The position numbers and the translations under genes were made by a program. From contig NKIB01014579.1 in assembly GCA_002256025.1 (NCBI GenBank), positions 1-42,522 of the forward strand: DNA of 42,522 nucleotides, in the 5' to 3' direction. Under the pieces are notes generated by a model that made no database searches, was not told where the DNA came from, and saw only the letters and a program-made list of their open reading frames with translations. Each line of letters begins with the position of its first letter. Positions within the stretch are counted from its first letter, which is position 1. Origin of the DNA: Asterionella formosa (Eukaryota). This document shows, piece by piece, positions 3,680-42,522 of the stretch.

Positions 3680-5025
3680 AGATCTGGATAAATCCTTTAC
3701 GAGATCACGCAGCAGCCACACATGGCAGCTCTATCGAAATCTTGCTTTTGAGGTGGCCCAACTTTGGCCTTTTGTGGGGGCTCCTGTGCAGTGGCAGCAC
3801 ATTTGAAATCAGTACAGGTCACCAGTTCAAATCTACAAAGGTACAAGATACAATTACATTATACTGTACAGTAAAAAAAGGCTCTCTTCTCTGTCTACGG
3901 AGGACATGCTACCGGATAGAACAACGAGGTACCAGGTACCACGTACCAATACGGCCAATATTACTCCGTGCCTGTGACTAAACAGATGTCCTGGTACCAG
4001 ACCCCAGGTACCAGGTACCAGGTAAGGCCCAGGACAATGGAGAGATTTCCCTTATGTAGAGCATCGCCACCGCATCGACCAAATACCAAAGCCAATTGCA
4101 GTTGAAAATATCAATACACATCACTTGGTTGAGAAATCTTTTATCAATAGTCGAATTACCTTAAGGTTGCGGCCCCAGCTTAACCCTAGTTCGTAGAAAA
4201 CATCGCTAGGGTTGTAAAAACGGCGTGGAACAGGGAGTTTCCTACTATGAACTCCCACGATTCGAGTGCCCATTTGAATATTTGAATTAAAATGGAATCG
4301 GCGCCAGATTGATAGAATTCCATTAAAAAATGATATTCAAACATTTATACTATTTCTTCGTTGCTGAATGTAGACATAATTTTACTCAACACCAAAACAA
4401 AAATAAATTAGGAGTATGCCAACATGTATGCTCATGGCTCGTGTTTATACGTTTATATTGAATCTACGTTGCTGAATGTAGTTTCAATATCACTCCACGC
4501 ACAAAGGTATATACCGGTGTGTGAATCAGTACCAGTACCGGAGTCCCAGAGTAATGGTATTTCGGTACTCAGAGTGCCAGGTACCAGTAGTACACAATAT
4601 TGGTTCATCATGATGAAGGACAGGATGTACTACTGGTGGTAGTACCGGTACTGATTTTACCAACCAGTATTCAGTACATCCAATACATGTGGCTCAAGTG
4701 TGGCTGGCGAGAATTTACAAGCTCTTCAGCGAATCGGGAGCAGGTGAATAAAACCAATTCAACCAATCAGAAGTTGTGTAGGGACGCGGGAACTTACCCT
4801 GGAGTCTTTTCGGACTGAGAATTATTCAGCGAAACATACCTACGCAAGACTCCACGTATACGAGAACGTTTTTGCACGTACAAATTCTGATTCCAATATT
4901 TTGGCGACTGTTGAAAAAGCCGATCGGGTCGACTTTTTGGAGGAGGATTGCGCTACATCTACGGGGTTTCATGAAGAATGAAATAGATAGCCTTGTACCC
5001 TATAACGTCAGGAGTTAACTTTTGC

Positions 5026-5134: not shown

Positions 5135-5902
5135 CCAGAAATGAGCAGAAATGAGGTCCTTACCATATCTGTATATAGATCATACCCCTAAGTCGAGGAA
5201 TGACTGTATCTAAGCATATGTAAAGTGGTCGTATTGGTGAAAGCTAAATTTACCTTTAACTATTTTATTTCCTTGCAGGTACTGTGTAGATTAACGTACA
5301 TAATAAAATTATTTTGGAAAAACACAGACCTTGTGATGTGTAACAGCGGGGCCGCAACCCTAAGAGATATGCATAACATAATAATGTATAACATTCTTAC
5401 ATGACCATCACTCTGGTAAGTACAACAAAGTGCACTTCTACATATTGATATCAAAAGACAAACAACCGGGACTTTTCCCAAACAGGGTTGAAAAAGAGAA
5501 AACTATTCGTAAATTCAACTGCCCATTGGCATTTGCACCACAATTGCACCACCGATTGCACCACTGTTACTTAGAGAAACCAAAATTGCACCATCAGACT
5601 ATCCATATATCAAATCCGTGCTACGGCCTGCACTACCGTAGTGATATTTTCTACATAGGATCACGATCAGATTCATATAAGATATGTATTTTGTAGCAGC
5701 CAACGGCAAAAGGCTACCCGGTTCATAAAAGTAATAGGACATACCGGTACTAGTAAGTATTGCTAGCATTTTGTATCATATACCGGTATATAGGTTACTA
5801 CCGGTAATGAATTTTTAACTACCGGTAAGGCACTCCTTGCTGACGTCATATTGTCGCTGCACCACATTGCACCACCATAGACCTACTGGTACCTGTTACC
5901 GG

Positions 5903-6095
5903 TAGTAGAAACACTACATTCATAGAAGCTAGCTACCGTACCGGTAGCTAGTTTACCCACTACATTTCTTCATTGACGAGAGTTGGTGTTTGTCCCTCTA
6001 GAAAATGGGAATTTCGGTTGATTGTTGGATTTCAGCCGTTCAGCAGCCCAGCCAACACGACTGCATCGGACAGTTCTCCTCCAAATTTACGACAC
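5903..6095 (+). repeat. Left arm of a ~190-bp inverted repeat; partner at 15815-15998
   Basis: Contains gtccctctagaaaatgggaatttcggttgattgttggatttcagc, whose reverse complement is at about 15871-15915. Confidence 0.9.
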
Positions 6096-28649: not shown

Positions 28650-28651
28650 TA

Positions 28652-29445
28652 CCGTAAAACCTAGTGTCTTGTATCCCCCCTGATACCTGTACCCCCCTTC
28701 GTACATCTGGCACAACACCCCCAAATATTTTATGTCTACAGAAAAAATAACAGCATATTATTGTATTCTAGCTATTTATTAATACATTTACTATAATTGT
28801 ATTCTTACCAGTCACCATCATGAAACAAGAATCAACAACAACACGAGCGATGCCAATGACATTTGCAATGGCAATATCCTTGTCCTGAGATCAATTTCAA
28901 AAGTCAAAGCTGCAACTTGCATGCTTGTTGTGGAGCGATTATCAAGCTGAATGCTAAAGGCTCAGGCAGTTCTGGTCTTGATGTTGTCGGCTTGCCGGAA
29001 GTGTTCACAGAATCATTTCGTCTGCTGCCTCATGATGCAGAAATATTTCGTGCATGTCATGATTCTGGTCGAACAATCATATAAGTGATGTGGTTGGCTT
29101 ATATTAATTTCCATCACGATCCAAGTCGTAGAGTCTACACAAGTTAATACCGTTGTAGGATTAGGTACAAATGGGTACACACACCTGGAATTACTATTGA
29201 TGTCATCACAAAACTCGGGAGCACCGGTGCACCAAAAATAGAAATTCTATTGATCATAGAAACTGTTTGAACTTTCAACAATATATCTTTTAATATTGCT
29301 AATTACGTTTTAGACTACGGGGAAACGGTGGTGAAGTTGGTTTGCTCGCAATGTTGGATTATCAAAAAAGGTCCGATGTCTTGTACTCCCCTCTAAGTAA
29401 AATCAGTCATGGCTGTGTACATTGAGGGGTACGAGACACCAGGTT
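28652..29445. mobile_element. Non-autonomous deletion derivative of the pogo family at 40570
   Basis: TA|ccgtaaaacctagtgtcttgtatccccc...gaaaaaataaca matches 40570-40669. Remnant SCNLHACCGAII matches the accessory ORF. Opposite TIR ggggtacgagacaccaggtt (29426-29445) lacks its last bases. Confidence 0.85.
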
Positions 29446-31035
29446 GTCCCAATGATTGTTCACATCCTCCATAATGCCTATTCTCTCAAGAACAATTTTC
29501 TGGAAATCTGCACCATTCCCATATACATTTGTTGGAGCAAATAACGTTCAAGCATCTCCAGAAAGCCACGCACCATACATCAGCATCTGTTTTCATCTGA
29601 TGATGTTCAGCAGGACTAATTCTAATTGGTTCTGATTCATTGCTCCCACTCTTTCGCTTTTTTGCTTGTTCCAATCCATCTCCGTTGCCATTGTTGATAG
29701 CATCATCCATCACTATAAGTTCTTGTTCAGAAATTTTCGTTGACAATGGCTTACTCTGACTGCCTGCTAAAAGCCTTGTCAATACACAATCTTGCTCCCA
29801 TGATGACACTTTCAACTGTGAAGGGAGGGCAGGAACAAATTTCAATTTGGTGGTGACAAAGCAGAAATAGCTACATTTCCGATTTTGGAAGGAATGCCGC
29901 CCTGTATACTTGTACTTGTTGGCCACCTTGAATGATCTCTAGAATGTTCGGTGGAGAACTCATGAGAGGAAGCACCTTGCTTGTTGACCACCCTTATCAT
30001 TGAAGCTAAAATAAACTGTGCTGCATCCTCAATTGAGTATTTCTGGAGCATGTACAATTGCAATTGGTCTGCTTGTAGCTCTCTTTGGCTCATGATGGTC
30101 AAATTGGTCAGATACGGCTACTTGCGGTGCACACTGGAGACAAAGTAGATCTGGAGATATTCACCAACATTGTCAGAGGGAATGAAGCCAATGTAATGAC
30201 ATGATGGAATCTGCATCCAACCGAAAGCAAAAAAAATATCATACCAGCTCTACTATGGCTACCCAACCTTTAGTCTTCGTGCACCCAGCCATATATACCG
30301 GTAGTGTCTTCCATATATCATCACATATCAAAAATGCATGCAGTATATGTAATACTGTATGCATGCATCCTCATCAGAATACCGATACCGGTACCAGGTT
30401 GTACCAGGTACAGTAAATACATACTAGGAGTCTTATGTGAAGAGTGAATTTCTATTTGCAAATTGTCCTGGCTGATTCGCAACATGAGTATTAGACGTAA
30501 GACCAGTATATGTCAAAAAGCGCCAATTTCATTTGCCTTTTTCATAAATTGTAAGTCCTACGGAACCGATACTACAGTACATGCGTTCAAAATTTCCAAC
30601 ATTTATTTGTATCCATCCATACATAGTTCCTTGTTGCATGCCTGCTGAAGAATCAAGTGAGGAGGATAGTACTGTACGCAAGCAGATCTTTACGCGCTCC
30701 CGGGTATATTTTTGTTACGCACGCCGGTCGTGTATGTATATTTCGTTCACTCTTCTTCGCTTCTTTCTATGCATGCTATTTGGAGTGCTTTTGTGTTCTG
30801 GCCATTGTAGAATGGTTGACCACATATTCGTACGCCGGTTTGACGATGATATTGAGAGCGATTGCTTGTTTCTTTCGCGCATCAAGAATGAGGAAAGAAG
30901 CAACAAGGTCTGCTTTCTTAACAAGCGTGGTACCGGGAAAAGTGAATACGTCACATTTTTTTAATCCTCCATAAATTCTGTTTTCACTTTTGTTCTCTCG
31001 TCGTCTTTTTTGAGACCGTTGACAACAAGACCAGC

Positions 31036-36255: not shown

Positions 36256-37659
36256 CTAATGGCAATCTGCGCACTTCCAAGCATGTGCACTTGAATGGGG
36301 CTGCCTATCCAATATCGAATATGGTCGCAAAAGGAATGCTCCTCCTCAGTTGAGTATTATGTTGGTCCTTCAGTCACCATTGTGATAATAGAGAGATGCT
36401 GGTGGTGGGAGCAGAGAAGAAAGGAGATAGGACGATGTGATGTTGACAATTTTCATTATAATTAATTACTATAATATTCCTGCGGATGAGACTATGGTAC
36501 TAATTTTCATGTAGGAAATAAATTTCAATTCTCGAGATCGGTCATTTGACGTATGGATTGACATACTATTAATCTTTGGGACCGTAAGGTGGCCATAAAA
36601 TTTCCCGAATACGAAGATCGAAGATTTTGCCGCGATAGCTTCGCAATATTCGATTTTCGTATTTCGTGCACCGAAGTTTCAGCCTACCGGTAAGTGGTTG
36701 TGGTAAAGATCGGTATGCACCATACATAGGAGATCGACGTAGTACATCCATCTTGCATCCCTGTACCGTATGCATACCGGTATCAAATACCGATTCATAA
36801 TGGTACCAGACTACTGGTACTGGTACCAGGGACCACCCTGGTACAATTGACTTCATGTCAGTTAATGGTTGTTAGTAAATAGCTACAAGCACGTACCGGT
36901 ATGTTCTTGAAACATGATGTTTGCCGGTTTGGTACCAGTACCGGTAACATGATGACAAAGATGATACGCCTATTGTAAACAGATAAATCACGAATTATAA
37001 ACCAATTGTTGTTTTCAGCTTCTGATATTATGGAATATGTCTACATGATGTACAACGGTTATGTGCGAACTACTCGGGTATTGATCCAGCAAGAAATCAT
37101 GGAGATATTATCGTTGCGGTCGAACGCCATGCATGGAGCTTCGTCCGCCGATTTTCAATTTTAGCTATTTCGCAATGAATATCAAAGCTACCTGTTCGTT
37201 TCTTTCACTACTTGCTAGCGACACGTGTATTCTATCTAAGAAACTAATAATAGTGTTAAGCAGTTACACAAAATCGAAAATTAATAATCATTTAATCATG
37301 GTGATGGGAAATTTCTCATGTTGTTTCGATTTATACATATAACCGTATGTTCATGTACAGCTACCGGCATAACGCTTTATGTATTCCCGGACATGTGCAC
37401 TCATTGGCGGGGGTCGACTATCATGTTCTTTGATCCCTCTCCTGTGCCCGCATCTGACCCCGACGGAATCTAGCTCTCCGGTAAAACCCCCCAATTTTTT
37501 TGGATTGGGGGAATGAGTTTGACCGTAAAATAGTTCTTGCCAAATCAAATTCTAGCATAATAATATTCAAAACGATCATGCCACGAATGAAACATAACCG
37601 TTTTCCGAGCTAGCCAGATTGGCTGCGTCACTCCAGAAAAAAGTATGTTACTTGTGCTA

Positions 37660-37903
37660 ATTTTCTGGCGCACAAGTGCGCCAAAATTTGGAAAATCAAT
37701 TCATCATAGAAACCGATTCAACCAAGAACAATAACACTTTTTATTAGCATTTCTATGTTTTCAACTATGGAGAAGAGCGTGGATATGACGTTTTGATCAA
37801 CAGAAGTTGGCAATGCCAAAATCGCCATCATCCAGTCTCCCCATCTAAGTAAATCTAGTCATGGCTGTGTACATTTGGGGAGACCGAAACACGGGATTTA
37901 CGG
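37660..37903. mobile_element. Terminal remnant of a related pogo-family element
   Basis: Ends agtcatggctgtgtacatt...acacgggatttacgg|TA and is homologous to about 29210-29445. Confidence 0.75.
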
Positions 37904-38189
37904 TAGGTCATACCGGTATATGAGTGATCGACTTATGTTCATGACAAGACTCAAAGATATGTATGAGTAAAGATTGACTCATGTTCATGACTACCGGTAG
38001 ACCCAAAAAGGTCATGACTGGACTAATTTGGAGACACATTTACGCACGCCGGTCGAGTATGTTTATTTCGTTCACTCTTCTTCGCTTCTTTCTATGATTA
38101 CGTGACATTTAGCGATTCTCCATCATAAATTCTAAATTCACTTCTGTTCTCTCGTCGTCTCTTTTGAGACCGTTGACAACAAAACCAGC

Positions 38190-39224: not shown

Positions 39225-40784
39225 CAGTGGCCCACATGTGTAATGCACAGCAGAGTTTAATAACTAAATATTATATGGACATATTAAGGATTCTTTTTTA
39301 GTTCCATTCATATTCATATAATTATGATTACAAATAGTTCCATCTTTTATTTTATACAATGCGAAATAACAGTAAGTAATACGTATCAGGCATATACCGG
39401 TAGACAAGTAATTGCTATATAACATATTCAGTAGTGCAATATATATAGTGTTGAAACAATATATTAGAGATTCCTGATTCCAGATCAGATTATGAAAATG
39501 TCAACTCTCTCAATTCTGACTCCGGTATTAACGATTGGAAGCAGGTCCGGTAATCAGTGTACATATCGTGCAGGTTGCTCGTTTTCTGTTCATCGATGCA
39601 CATACTGGTATGTACGAGAAAAGGCAGGGATACATCCCCAAATACTATGTATATTGGTAATGATATGTCCAGCTGACAACGAGCAATGGTGGTACATGGT
39701 GGATATGATCATCATGCATATTGTTCATATATCTATACTTTGTCGCATTCACAAATATTGAACGTTCCTCAACGGTTGCTATCTACTGGTCGTACCAAAT
39801 CGTCATGAAGGAAAGTGCGTATGTAAATATATATGCAATTGTTTGTATAATATATTCCTGTTTACGAACGATTTGAAATGTGAATATATTGATATATGAA
39901 TATATTAATAGTACATCTTATTATCTCTAGTTGCTATGTATCTACAGTTACCCTAACGGTAGGAACTATACATATCCATATAGACCCGTATGTACAATCA
40001 CAATCACCATGCAGCCAGTCAGTATGTACTGTATGGCGCAGGATCATGATCATTATCAACATAATTCATCATTGGCTTGGGTTGACAGCATGATGTTTGT
40101 CCCACAAAAATGTTGTGTACAGTACTGAGTACTTTTTTTTTCAATACAGTTTCATTCTCATCATGTCGATGTTTCATCGTCTCCTTCGTCCTCTTCTTGT
40201 TGTTGTTGTTCTTGTTCTTGTTGTGGTGTTGAAAGGGGCTTTGTGTAAATGATAGAAAACAGTCACACATATCACCTACCGATATTTATCAATATTGCAT
40301 ATTATATGAAAGGGCTTTTGGGATAATTGAATTTATGTATAAAAAGTGTATAAATTAGCTACCATCTGGCTGTACATAAACTCATATACATATAGTAGAA
40401 TAAAGGATGAATCTTGTGTAAAATAGTTGCATGACTGATGAGGACAGCTTGAGCAATTAGGTAGTACGAGCTATTTAGTTACATCAGTACAATTCCTTGT
40501 CGTAGCGGTATGAGGTATATTGGAAAGATATCGATCGGTACCAGTACCTGGTATGGAATAATCTATATACCGTAAAACCTGGTGTCTCGTATCCCCCCAG
40601 ATACCTGTACCCCCCTTTGTACATCTGGCGCAACACTCCCAAATATTTCCTGTGTACAGAAAAAATAACACAACATAAACGTATTCTATTTATTAGTATG
40701 TATTTTCGTATATTACCGGTACCCTACTGTTTCCGGTAAAGTATCATCACCTGTAAAATATCGTCACATATACCGGTTGGCAAC

Positions 40785-41177
40785 ATGATGATTGCGGACG
40801 ACATTCGTGATGGCGAAATCCTTGGCCTCAGAGGTACCACCAATGGAAGAAGCTGTGAGCAGCATGCCTGCTGTGGGGCAATTGTGAGGCCGAATGATTG
40901 TGTTCGGTTCAAGGCAGCAGTGGTCCCGATTGATGGAGTTGATCAGGCAGGTATCAAGGCTGTTCTGATCCTTGATGGGACGGAACTGTGCACGGTTGGT
41001 TTCCTTGGCAAGAATATTGCAGCTTTGAAGAAAACAAGTGACAAGTTTGTCAACAAGTTTGCTCAAGTTATTGAACTCTATGACTCTAGTGAAAATGCTG
41101 CCAAAAGGGCAAAAAGCCACAATAACCTTGGAGTTTGTTCATTCCGGCTTCTTGAGGACATCCAGATTCAGGAATAG
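40785..41177 (+). CDS. Transposon accessory protein, 130 aa, HIRAN-like by motif impression
   Basis: Intact ORF: GRSCEQHACCG...VRF...IKAVLILDG..CTVGFL...FAQVIELY. A degenerate homolog is at about 28870-28950. Confidence 0.75.
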   Translation: MMIADDIRDGEILGLRGTTNGRSCEQHACCGAIVRPNDCVRFKAAVVPIDGVDQAGIKAVLILDGTELCTVGFLGKNIAALKKTSDKFVNKFAQVIELYDSSENAAKRAKSHNNLGVCSFRLLEDIQIQE

Positions 41178-41416
41178 ATGTTATGAAAACTGGACAAGCC
41201 TTTGAATACTTCAACCAATCTACACTATAATGTTAATAATAGTATTAGAAATTAGCATTTTCAGCATTAGAATCACTCCGTTTTGGGTTTTTTGTAGTCA
41301 TCAGCTTAATTTATTTGCCTATTAGGAAATGCCATCCTGAATCTAATTGACGATAATGATTGTTTCACTAAAACTAAATGTTAAAATAGATTATCAAATA
41401 ATCCAATCCTTATTGA

Positions 41417-42522
41417 CTAGTCAACATCAGCAAAGCCCTCATATCCAATGCTCTTCCAGGTATTGGTGATTGTTTGAATTGAGACTCTAGCCCATGCCAT
41501 CTCTACCCATTGTGCAATGTGGTGCCTTTGCACCTTGGGATTATCCACATTGGCAACCATGTAGTCTTCCCAATATCCTCTCATGTAGTCCTTGAAGGGC
41601 TTATTAACTCCTACATCCAACACTTGAAGTCTAGATGTGTAGCCTGGGAGGACGAAATCAATCTCAGTGCCGCAATTTTTAATTGCATCAACACAACGTC
41701 CTACCTTGTGGACAGTAAAATCATCCATAAGAAGGTGAGTAGGCTCACCGCCTTTTCCCAACGCAAATGGTTGCCAAACTTTTTCGATCCATTGTAAAAA
41801 TATGTCTGTATCAACCCAAGCTTTGGGTTGACAAGCGTATTTAATACTGACCGGAAAAAGTTGTTGATTGTTGTCTAGTAATCCCAATTGCCTGGAAATA
41901 CGTCCATCCCTTGTTCCTGTAAATACAATGAATGGTGGCAACTTCTCACCACTCATTGTCACCCCTAACAACACAGTGCAACGATTCGAATTTCCTGTTG
42001 TTCGAAGCCCAATGGTCCTTTCGCCTCGGGTTGCCAAAGTCTTTGATCCAAACATGTCAAAATTGATGTTTGTCTCATCAATATTGACAATGTTTCCAGC
42101 AGGAAATTCGAACGCAGCAATTTGATTGTTGACGTAGGAAACAAAATCTTGAATTGTCTCCTGATCCAGCCTTGTATTTTGGGCGACACGAGTCACACGC
42201 CTAATGACAATGTCCTCACGGGCAAGCCAGCGCTTGATCCGTTTTTCAAGTGCCTTCAGCGACACATTTTCGTTCCCAGGTTGCCTCTTAAGCTCAACAC
42301 TGAGCATCCTGGTGGTGCAGGCCCTATCTTGAAGCCGCAACTGGTCAAAAAGAGTCTTCAATCCTTCGAAATCAGCAGCACTTTTTGGAGAGCGGCCCGG
42401 GTGAGCGATTTTTTTCATCAACACCTGCCTCTGAATCACACCTTCTTCCTGCAGAGGAATCTCCGCCACCTCCGCCGGAACCACAACCATTGCACCATCC
42501 AGCATGGACTTCCAGCTCCGGA
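41417..42522 (-). CDS. pogo-type DD35D transposase (DDE_1), 5'-partial, uninterrupted
   Basis: NIDET...KLPPFIVF...AWVD...LLMD-(35 aa)-D in QVLDVGVNKPFK. The frame stays open upstream of Met 42505 (RSWKS) to the window edge. Confidence 0.95.
   Translation of the reverse strand, partial: RSWKSMLDGAMVVVPAEVAEIPLQEEGVIQRQVLMKKIAHPGRSPKSAADFEGLKTLFDQLRLQDRACTTRMLSVELKRQPGNENVSLKALEKRIKRWLAREDIVIRRVTRVAQNTRLDQETIQDFVSYVNNQIAAFEFPAGNIVNIDETNINFDMFGSKTLATRGERTIGLRTTGNSNRCTVLLGVTMSGEKLPPFIVFTGTRDGRISRQLGLLDNNQQLFPVSIKYACQPKAWVDTDIFLQWIEKVWQPFALGKGGEPTHLLMDDFTVHKVGRCVDAIKNCGTEIDFVLPGYTSRLQVLDVGVNKPFKDYMRGYWEDYMVANVDNPKVQRHHIAQWVEMAWARVSIQTITNTWKSIGYEGFADVD

Follow-up and report, generated by a model that had tools for sequence, protein, structure and literature searches.

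A pogo-type transposon on an Asterionella formosa contig carries a second conserved gene, encoding a small protein with a predicted HIRAN-like fold

Introduction

In textbooks, the Tc1/mariner/pogo elements stand for transposons with a single gene, and gene-transfer tools in wide use have been derived from them. Here, we describe a pogo-type element that begins at position 40570 of a 42 522 nt stretch of DNA from Asterionella formosa (contig NKIB01014579.1 of assembly GCA_002256025.1; the whole stretch, at its full length, is referred to as the window). As well as a DDE_1 transposase, the element carries a second, convergent gene for a protein of 130 amino acids (aa) with a predicted HIRAN-like fold.

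The DD35D families of pogo (Passer and Fot/Fot-like) have in common with the 40570 element a DDE_1 transposase with DD35D spacing, short terminal inverted repeats (TIRs) and TA flanks, and probably an N-terminal helix-turn-helix. Gao et al. (2020; PMC7386202) give DD35D as typical of Passer and Fot-like pogo, and report pogo families from stramenopiles. In comparison with these families, the 40570 element adds a second, convergent and conserved gene, and we place it at superfamily level. A single-gene layout is the organisational norm of pogo, not a test of membership.

Two-gene and multi-gene organisations are known from other elements. Harbinger/PIF elements need a Myb-like second protein alongside the DDE transposase, which that protein recruits to the element. 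These are the nearest functional analogy, being two-gene cut-and-paste elements with a small second protein; however, the transposase of the 40570 element is of the DDE_1 type, from another superfamily, and its accessory protein has neither a Myb/SANT domain nor any other Pfam domain. An initial annotation of the window had taken pogo and Tc1 elements normally to encode a transposase only, which is broadly right, but the TBE/Tec elements of ciliates, from the same IS630-Tc1-mariner group, have three open reading frames (ORFs), one of which encodes a zinc-finger protein, according to the accessible part of PMC7325037. They are members of the wider Tc1/mariner/pogo group that carry extra ORFs; as described in that part of the source, they differ in being much larger, in their TIRs (approximately 700 bp in Tec), in their DD34E transposase and in their accessory genes, with no HIRAN-like protein reported (PMC7325037). 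Similarly, PMC9587614 describes KolobokP, in which a DDD/E transposase is accompanied by a His-Me finger endonuclease. This is again a eukaryotic TIR lineage with an added second gene acting on nucleic acid, but of a different superfamily and with an enzyme as the accessory protein (PMC9587614).

Our search of the open-access literature found nothing that describes a HIRAN-like second gene in a pogo element. The arrangement, in which a pogo lineage has two genes and one of them encodes a family of HIRAN-fold, putative zinc proteins, is apparently undescribed.

Results and discussion

A two-gene pogo element with paired termini

The left four-fifths of a pogo-superfamily element, an autonomous transposon of the cut-and-paste type approximately 2.44 kb in length, make up the segment from 40570 to the window end. 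A two-gene pogo-type element had been annotated here, and the DDE_1 domain, the TIRs, the TA flanks and the position of the second gene inside the TIRs all bear this out. The TA at 40568..40569, half of the target-site duplication, precedes the left TIR, CCGTAAAACCTGGTGTCTCGTATCCCC (40570..40596, + strand), which pairs with the right TIR in a full copy of the element. The subterminal region and the 5′ leader of the small gene follow, by direct reading of the sequence, at 40597..40784 (+). The accessory gene itself, an intact ORF for the 130-aa protein, occupies 40785..41177 (+), in the interval from the terminus to where the convergent transposase gene has its 3′ end, as had been annotated. 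A spacer of 239 bp (41178..41416) separates the two convergent stop codons, and the transposase gene (41417..42522, − strand) has its 5′ end cut by the end of the window. The one-gene organisation usual for pogo is therefore not what this element has: a second conserved gene lies within its TIRs.

The left boundary is well defined. Three sites in the window (40576 +, 28658 + and 29425 −) have a 21 nt core of the terminus, where 100 shuffles give an expectation of 0.00, and in contigs of four RNA libraries several flanks, unrelated to one another, are joined to the element at 40566-40570. As the recurrent terminus and the differing flanks meet here, with TA at 40568-40569, we set the start of the element at 40570. 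TA precedes the terminus in all six distinct left ends (the window copy, a second window copy described below, and the related loci L001, L002, L004 and L010). Only the left end of the window copy is displayed, and right ends were readable in two cases, with TA in L010 and CA in L002. TIR pairs were found in L002, in L010 and in the second window copy.

The locus L002 is a near-identical complete copy (97-98% identical), in which TIRs at 78-106 and 2491-2519 delimit approximately 2.44 kb. These TIRs are 29 nt long and 93% complementary. The small ORF of L002 lies at 288-677 and its transposase, on the opposite strand, measures 408 aa when counted from the first Met. Set beside L002, the window copy is without approximately 46 N-terminal transposase codons, which include the probable first helix-turn-helix, and without the approximately 0.5 kb that leads to the right TIR. 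Because those codons are cut off by the end of the window, the ATG at 42505 is not the true start of the transposase.

The transposase ORF in the window (41417..42505/42520, −) matches Pfam DDE_1 (PF03184) at E 1.1e-22, with 80.9 bits against a cut-off of 22, and the domain was also matched in the transposases of L002 (in the C-terminal half), L004 and L015. D188, D307 and D343 are invariant in 30 of 30 aligned transposases, the last two being spaced by 35 residues, which gives the DD35D signature. The N-terminal region lies beyond the window end in our copy, and was judged on the full transposases of relatives; the matches there are sub-threshold, to HTH_Tnp_1 (E 1.8e-4, 22.1 bits versus 24.1) and to CENP-B_N (E 6.5e-4, 19.7 bits versus 21.2).

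The small ORF is a gene of the element

A pattern search of metagenome contigs with the alignment of the small protein gave 16 related loci (L001-L016). In seven of these (L001, L002, L003, L004, L005, L010 and L015) a transposase gene lies downstream, convergent and at a similar distance, the spacer measuring 242, 306 and 238 bp in L002, L004 and L015, respectively. Both genes lie within the TIR pair in L002 and in L010. A further five loci (L006, L011, L013, L014 and L016) stop at most approximately 140 bp past the ORF, and are uninformative on linkage; in L007-L009, which are copies of one truncated pseudogene derivative, the transposase is absent. L012 was considered as an unlinked intact copy and rejected as such, because the 750 bp downstream of its ORF is a tandem array of a unit found in the L015 spacer; this locus is also uninformative. 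The unit, of approximately 35 bp, occurs once in the gene spacer of L015 (561-599) and as an array of approximately 650 bp in L012 (655-1305).

The two proteins diverge in parallel. Identity to the window proteins in L002, L004 and L015 is 98, 58 and 45% for the accessory protein and 98, 49 and 38% for the transposase, so that conservation is higher in the small protein. The initial annotation had proposed a dN/dS test (non-synonymous over synonymous substitution rates), and the ORF is not evolving neutrally: the ratio is 0.13-0.24 in intact pairs, namely 0.16 for the window and L004 (with dS saturated), 0.24 for L012 and L013 (dS 0.089) and 0.13 for L012 and L014. Between stop-bearing pseudogene copies it is 0.44-0.78. 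The small protein is found in identical form on up to 52 contigs, as a repeated element would give. The small ORF is a real gene of the element and is conserved with it. The suggestion that it is an element component and not a one-off capture holds up, given the same convergent pair in related loci down to protein identities of 42% (accessory) and 38% (transposase), its place inside the TIRs and the parallel divergence.

These data bear on two simpler explanations. The first is that the ORF is no gene, and is open by chance or because it mirrors some other feature on the opposite strand. Antisense to the accessory gene, an ORF of 102-135 aa does lie open in the window (40764-41120, −), in L002 (282-587, −) and in L004 (245-649, −), but no antisense ORF of at least 90 aa is present in L012-L015, and it is the sense frame that has 728 related clusters, a low dN/dS and a high-confidence fold (see below). 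We regard this explanation as effectively refuted, and the antisense ORF is probably incidental. The second is that the ORF is a passenger, descended from a host gene that an ancestral element picked up on one occasion, and that it serves the host or nothing at all, with no role in transposition. A family of 728 clusters, for few of which an element context has been seen, and the existence of longer members with extra N-terminal regions would suit a passenger. Its conserved position and orientation inside the TIRs of elements whose transposases are only 38-50% identical would not, and neither would the purifying selection, nor the loss of the gene by decay in deletion derivatives and pseudogene copies, as is expected of an element gene. 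We consider a passenger highly improbable.

Decayed copies illustrate this last point. The segment at 28652..29451 (+) is a TIR-bounded, non-autonomous deletion derivative of approximately 0.8 kb that retains both TIR cores and has no transposase; its right end is diverged, and the last bases are uncertain by approximately 3 nt. Over 127 bp, 40568-40694 and 28650-28776 are 86.6% identical. The remnant of the accessory ORF, at approximately 28866-28955, is frameshifted and truncated. Within it, the ORF 28863..29084 reads ..SCNLHACCGAI.., and residues 22-37 of the window protein align by tblastn to 28905-28952 (62.5%, E 0.003). The CxxHxCCG motif that had been noticed in this copy is thus present, but as the copy is decayed the motif reflects common descent rather than selection, and is not evidence of function.

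Seven of the metagenome loci (L005-L011) carry the same two in-frame stops in the accessory ORF, where intact relatives have Arg and Gln, and four of the seven (L007, L008, L009 and L011) share a truncated 3′ end. These loci are a pseudogenised, decaying subfamily that was nevertheless copied or duplicated. In L010, an RVT_1 reverse-transcriptase ORF (1010-1771, +; E 3.2e-9) adjoins the decayed element copy, which marks the neighbourhood as repeat-rich.

A large protein family with a candidate zinc site

The small protein belongs to a large family that has no Pfam model. We found 60 relatives in a collection clustered at 90% identity, and in a library of representatives at 50% identity there were 728 at E <= 0.001 and 264 at E <= 1e-10. 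Most members are stand-alone proteins of 115-140 aa. Longer members, including P0088, P0093, P0099, P0117, P0129, P0131 and P0136, have acidic, low-complexity N-terminal extensions of 60-190 aa, which are mutually unrelated except in the pair P0099/P0111; one further protein (P0123) has the domain twice in tandem. The window protein matched 0 Pfam families at E <= 1, and a Pfam search of 20 longer relatives gave no link to a known family. No fused forms were found among 215 longer-protein candidates, which is weak evidence, and pattern searches of prokaryote genomes and viral contigs returned no close relatives. The samples with related DNA are of freshwater, riverine or algal origin.

The small protein shows no evident catalytic motif. 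What is conserved is a set of Cys and His residues: among 185 near-full-length relatives, C24 is kept in 177, H27 in 177, C30 in 179 and C69 in 182. C24-x2-H27-x2-C30 together with C69 would provide four candidate zinc ligands, forming a probable zinc knuckle. The CxxHxCCG motif originally proposed captures part of this set; C29, the first Cys of its ‘CCG’, is variable (kept in only 119 of 185 relatives) and C69 lies outside it, so that the conserved set is better written as C24/H27/C30/C69.

Fold and relationship to HIRAN

Structure prediction and comparison, the check suggested in the initial annotation, placed HIRAN domains at the top of the matches. AlphaFold modelled the small protein with a predicted local distance difference test score (pLDDT) of 78 from a shallow alignment, and of 91.6 with 70 diverse family members (predicted template modelling score 0.84); the five models agree, each with a pLDDT of at least 89.7. 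The topology of the model shows a beta-barrel of six strands with short helices, as in the HIRAN fold. In a Foldseek search of the PDB, ranks 1-11 were HIRAN chains of HLTF (probability 0.98-1.00, E 0.007-0.09, template modelling score 0.44-0.53), aligned over 116-118 columns at 16-22% identity. After re-scoring of the top 995 Foldseek chains, the first seven were all HIRAN, with 81 aa of 4s0n_C superposed at 2.4 A and 22% identity.

The best structural matches were the HIRAN domains of HLTF, of Rad5 and of the bacterial protein lp_0118, and the same three structures led for the first, weaker model. The next match after the HIRAN leaders in the fold comparison scored 3.9. A bacterial HIRAN profile found lp_0118 at E 9e-16, and the three leading structures are therefore all HIRAN. 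In a library of predicted viral structures, HIRAN-named proteins ranked 5, 11 and 20. A protein-language-model atlas placed HIRAN-bearing clusters at ranks 2-4 with scores of 0.77-0.78, which is below the level of trust and was taken as a lead only.

Homology was tested by aligning the profile of 70 family members with that of 30 natural bacterial HIRAN domains collected with the Pfam model. The hhalign score was 31.9 (P 5.9e-5, probability 65%, 42 columns), compared with 9.3 and 8.7 for reversed profiles and 12.1 for an unrelated transposase profile. It exceeded all 300 shuffles, the maxima being 19.0 for 150 column shuffles and 27.5 for 150 shuffles of six-column blocks. When the threshold is relaxed, the two profiles align colinearly across 100 columns, and the Cys/His knuckle is seen to be inserted into the loop that follows strand 1. 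Coinciding residues are a Gly after strand 1, A-I in strand 3 and G-[FY]-L-x-R after strand 4. Relative to HIRAN, there is an extra helix (residues 105-113) ahead of the last strand, and C69 sits on strand 4 of the model.

On the strength of the models, the small protein is certainly HIRAN-like in predicted fold, and it is a probable distant relative of HIRAN. Judged by its sequence, it is not a member of PF08797 as this family is defined. The early suggestion of a HIRAN resemblance thus stands as regards the fold, and has a modest, controlled profile signal behind it, but does not extend to membership of the Pfam family. The small protein shares with HIRAN (PF08797; HLTF, Rad5 and lp_0118, PDB 3k2y) the fold and a colinear profile, and resembles lp_0118 in standing alone at approximately 100-130 aa. 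It differs in having no Pfam match, in not conserving the Asn and Asp of the end-binding positions, and in its inserted Cys/His knuckle and extra helix; moreover, it is encoded by a eukaryotic transposon, and is not fused to an SNF2 or nuclease module.

A possible role at DNA ends

In Tc1/mariner transposition, the transferred strand is cleaved at the boundary of the element and its partner strand a few bases further in, so that the donor flanks are left with short 3′ overhangs. In the HIRAN domain of HLTF, two loops and a strand form the cavity in which DNA lies, where Y72 and Y93 stack on the terminal dinucleotide; an N90/N91 mutant is defective (PMC4666394). As HIRAN holds a 3′-terminal dinucleotide, a HIRAN-fold protein is a natural candidate for the handling of such overhangs. 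Our preferred reading, in which we place roughly even confidence, is that the small protein is a remodelled HIRAN relative that serves as a nucleic-acid-binding cofactor of transposition at the DNA ends that the transposase generates. It would be made from its own transcript, bind zinc through the C24/H27/C30/C69 knuckle, and bind nucleic acid by the face that HIRAN uses, with the cavity rebuilt around the knuckle. The cofactor might then act with the transposase at the 3′-OH ends of the transposon or at the short 3′ overhangs of the donor flanks, in end assembly, end protection or end repair.

Both genes are covered by contigs from four metatranscriptome runs in three studies, and one RNA-library contig of 592 nt spans 40586-41183, which comprises the leader and the whole small ORF. 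The spacer was uncovered in three runs; this was not used as evidence.

Several observations weigh against a cofactor derived from HIRAN. N45 and D48, invariant in the 30 bacterial HIRAN domains, align to variable columns of the family, and the family alignment shows no conserved aromatic pair in the equivalent loop that could replace Y72/Y93 of HLTF. The hhalign probability reaches only 65%, and 6.8% when a global alignment is forced; a Pfam match to HIRAN PF08797 appeared in only one of 70 relatives (E 0.12) and was treated as noise, and the family profile found no chain among the PDB sequences at E <= 10. The small protein is not basic, with an isoelectric point of 6.1 (family median 6.09). 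Linkage to a transposase was observed in only about four lineages, while the family numbers 728 clusters. Finally, the RNA contigs demonstrate presence in the libraries rather than transcription, as they give neither strand nor level and may include DNA carry-over; one run (X15) covers the outside flank too, at lower depth.

With the N45 and D48 positions variable, set against the pocket residues of HLTF, the family appears to keep the HIRAN scaffold with a rebuilt ligand-binding loop. Binding of 3′-OH ends, the HIRAN property cited in the initial annotation, can therefore not simply be transferred to this family. Action on donor-site breaks or stalled forks, which that annotation suggested, would likewise be conjectural.

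The replacement of the canonical end-binding residues by a Cys/His knuckle is also what would be seen if the protein were a sequence-specific recruiter, with the knuckle reading the doubled [AT]CCCCCC subterminal repeats, bringing or holding the transposase, and with no end-binding of the HIRAN type. By direct reading, the doubled motif lies at 40590-40630, from the inner edge of the left TIR into the subterminal region, and the doubled GGACCCCCC arrangement recurs in a diverged form in L004; the strict co-inheritance of the gene with that of the transposase fits as well. However, the right end of L002 has one C6-type motif only, the transposase has its own probable N-terminal helix-turn-helix DNA-binding region, the small protein is slightly acidic and any protein-DNA specificity is putative. 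We consider such a recruiter rather unlikely.

The slight acidity of the protein would also fit a regulator or host-interface factor that inhibits or doses the transposase, or counters host silencing or repair factors, and takes no part in the chemistry. The VANC proteins of plant VANDAL elements, for example, are anti-silencing factors. Constraint on the small protein is stronger than on the transposase (58 versus 49% and 45 versus 38% identity), the acidic, low-complexity N-terminal tails of the longer relatives are typical of protein-binding regions, and convergent transcription could couple the expression of the two genes; but the only fold relatives are domains that bind nucleic-acid ends, and we hold a purely regulatory role to be unlikely.

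Probable excision footprints and other repeats in the window

The window is approximately 40% G+C, with ORFs for ARM-repeat and leucine-rich-repeat proteins, and is eukaryotic in character. The palindrome TACCGGTA occurs in it 23 times, mostly in unique contexts, against 0.22 expected (maximum three in 100 shuffles), and control palindromes of similar composition occur 0-1 times. The sites include 2613, 4643, six at 5742-5946, 15689, 30296, four at 36685-36946, 37911, 39395 and, within the subterminal region of the 40570 element, 40714 (40714-40721). For TACCGTA and its complement TACGGTA taken together, the count is 12, with 1.7 expected. TACCGGTA can be decomposed as TA+CC+GG+TA, and all three subfamilies that we have seen have CC...GG ends. 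Read in this way, TACCGGTA is the two-base-overhang excision footprint that would be expected of TA-flanked CC...GG elements such as the 40570 element. From its excess, excision would seem to be very frequent in this genome, and the octamer may correspond to the ‘stereotyped scars’ of the initial annotation, which had been linked to the accessory protein.

A more specific form of the preferred cofactor reading would make that link. In it, the HIRAN-derived zinc-knuckle protein would capture the CC 3′ overhangs of the donor flanks or the 3′-OH ends of the transposon, shield them from resection and pass them to fill-in end joining, giving a uniform TA-CC-GG-TA scar. We think this unlikely as it stands, though if true it would be a transposon-encoded factor that chooses the outcome of host repair, and would explain the 23 identical TACCGGTA sites. 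Tc1-group elements without an accessory gene leave such footprints too, and the scars therefore do not require the accessory ORF.

Two other repeats deserve mention. A solo terminus, TACCGTAAATCCCGTG, of the subfamily of L010 and L005, lies at 37890-37905 (−), 6 bp from a TACCGGTA site; no convincing partner TIR was found upstream of it. Lastly, GGTACCAGGTACC and close variants (3928-4019, 6332, 35170 and others) occur eight times against 0.00 expected, and are also present in the flanks of related metagenome elements and of the RNA contigs.

Conclusions

In the pogo lineage described here, the second protein is conserved at least as well as the transposase, which implies a step of the transposition cycle that is not covered by the transposase alone in these hosts. 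The work also ties a large family of proteins (728 clusters at 50% identity), for which there has been no Pfam model, structurally to the DNA-end-binding fold of HIRAN. If the small protein does act on ends, the element would represent a compact, testable case of a mobile element steering break repair, and the protein might serve as an add-on for transposon tools in algae.

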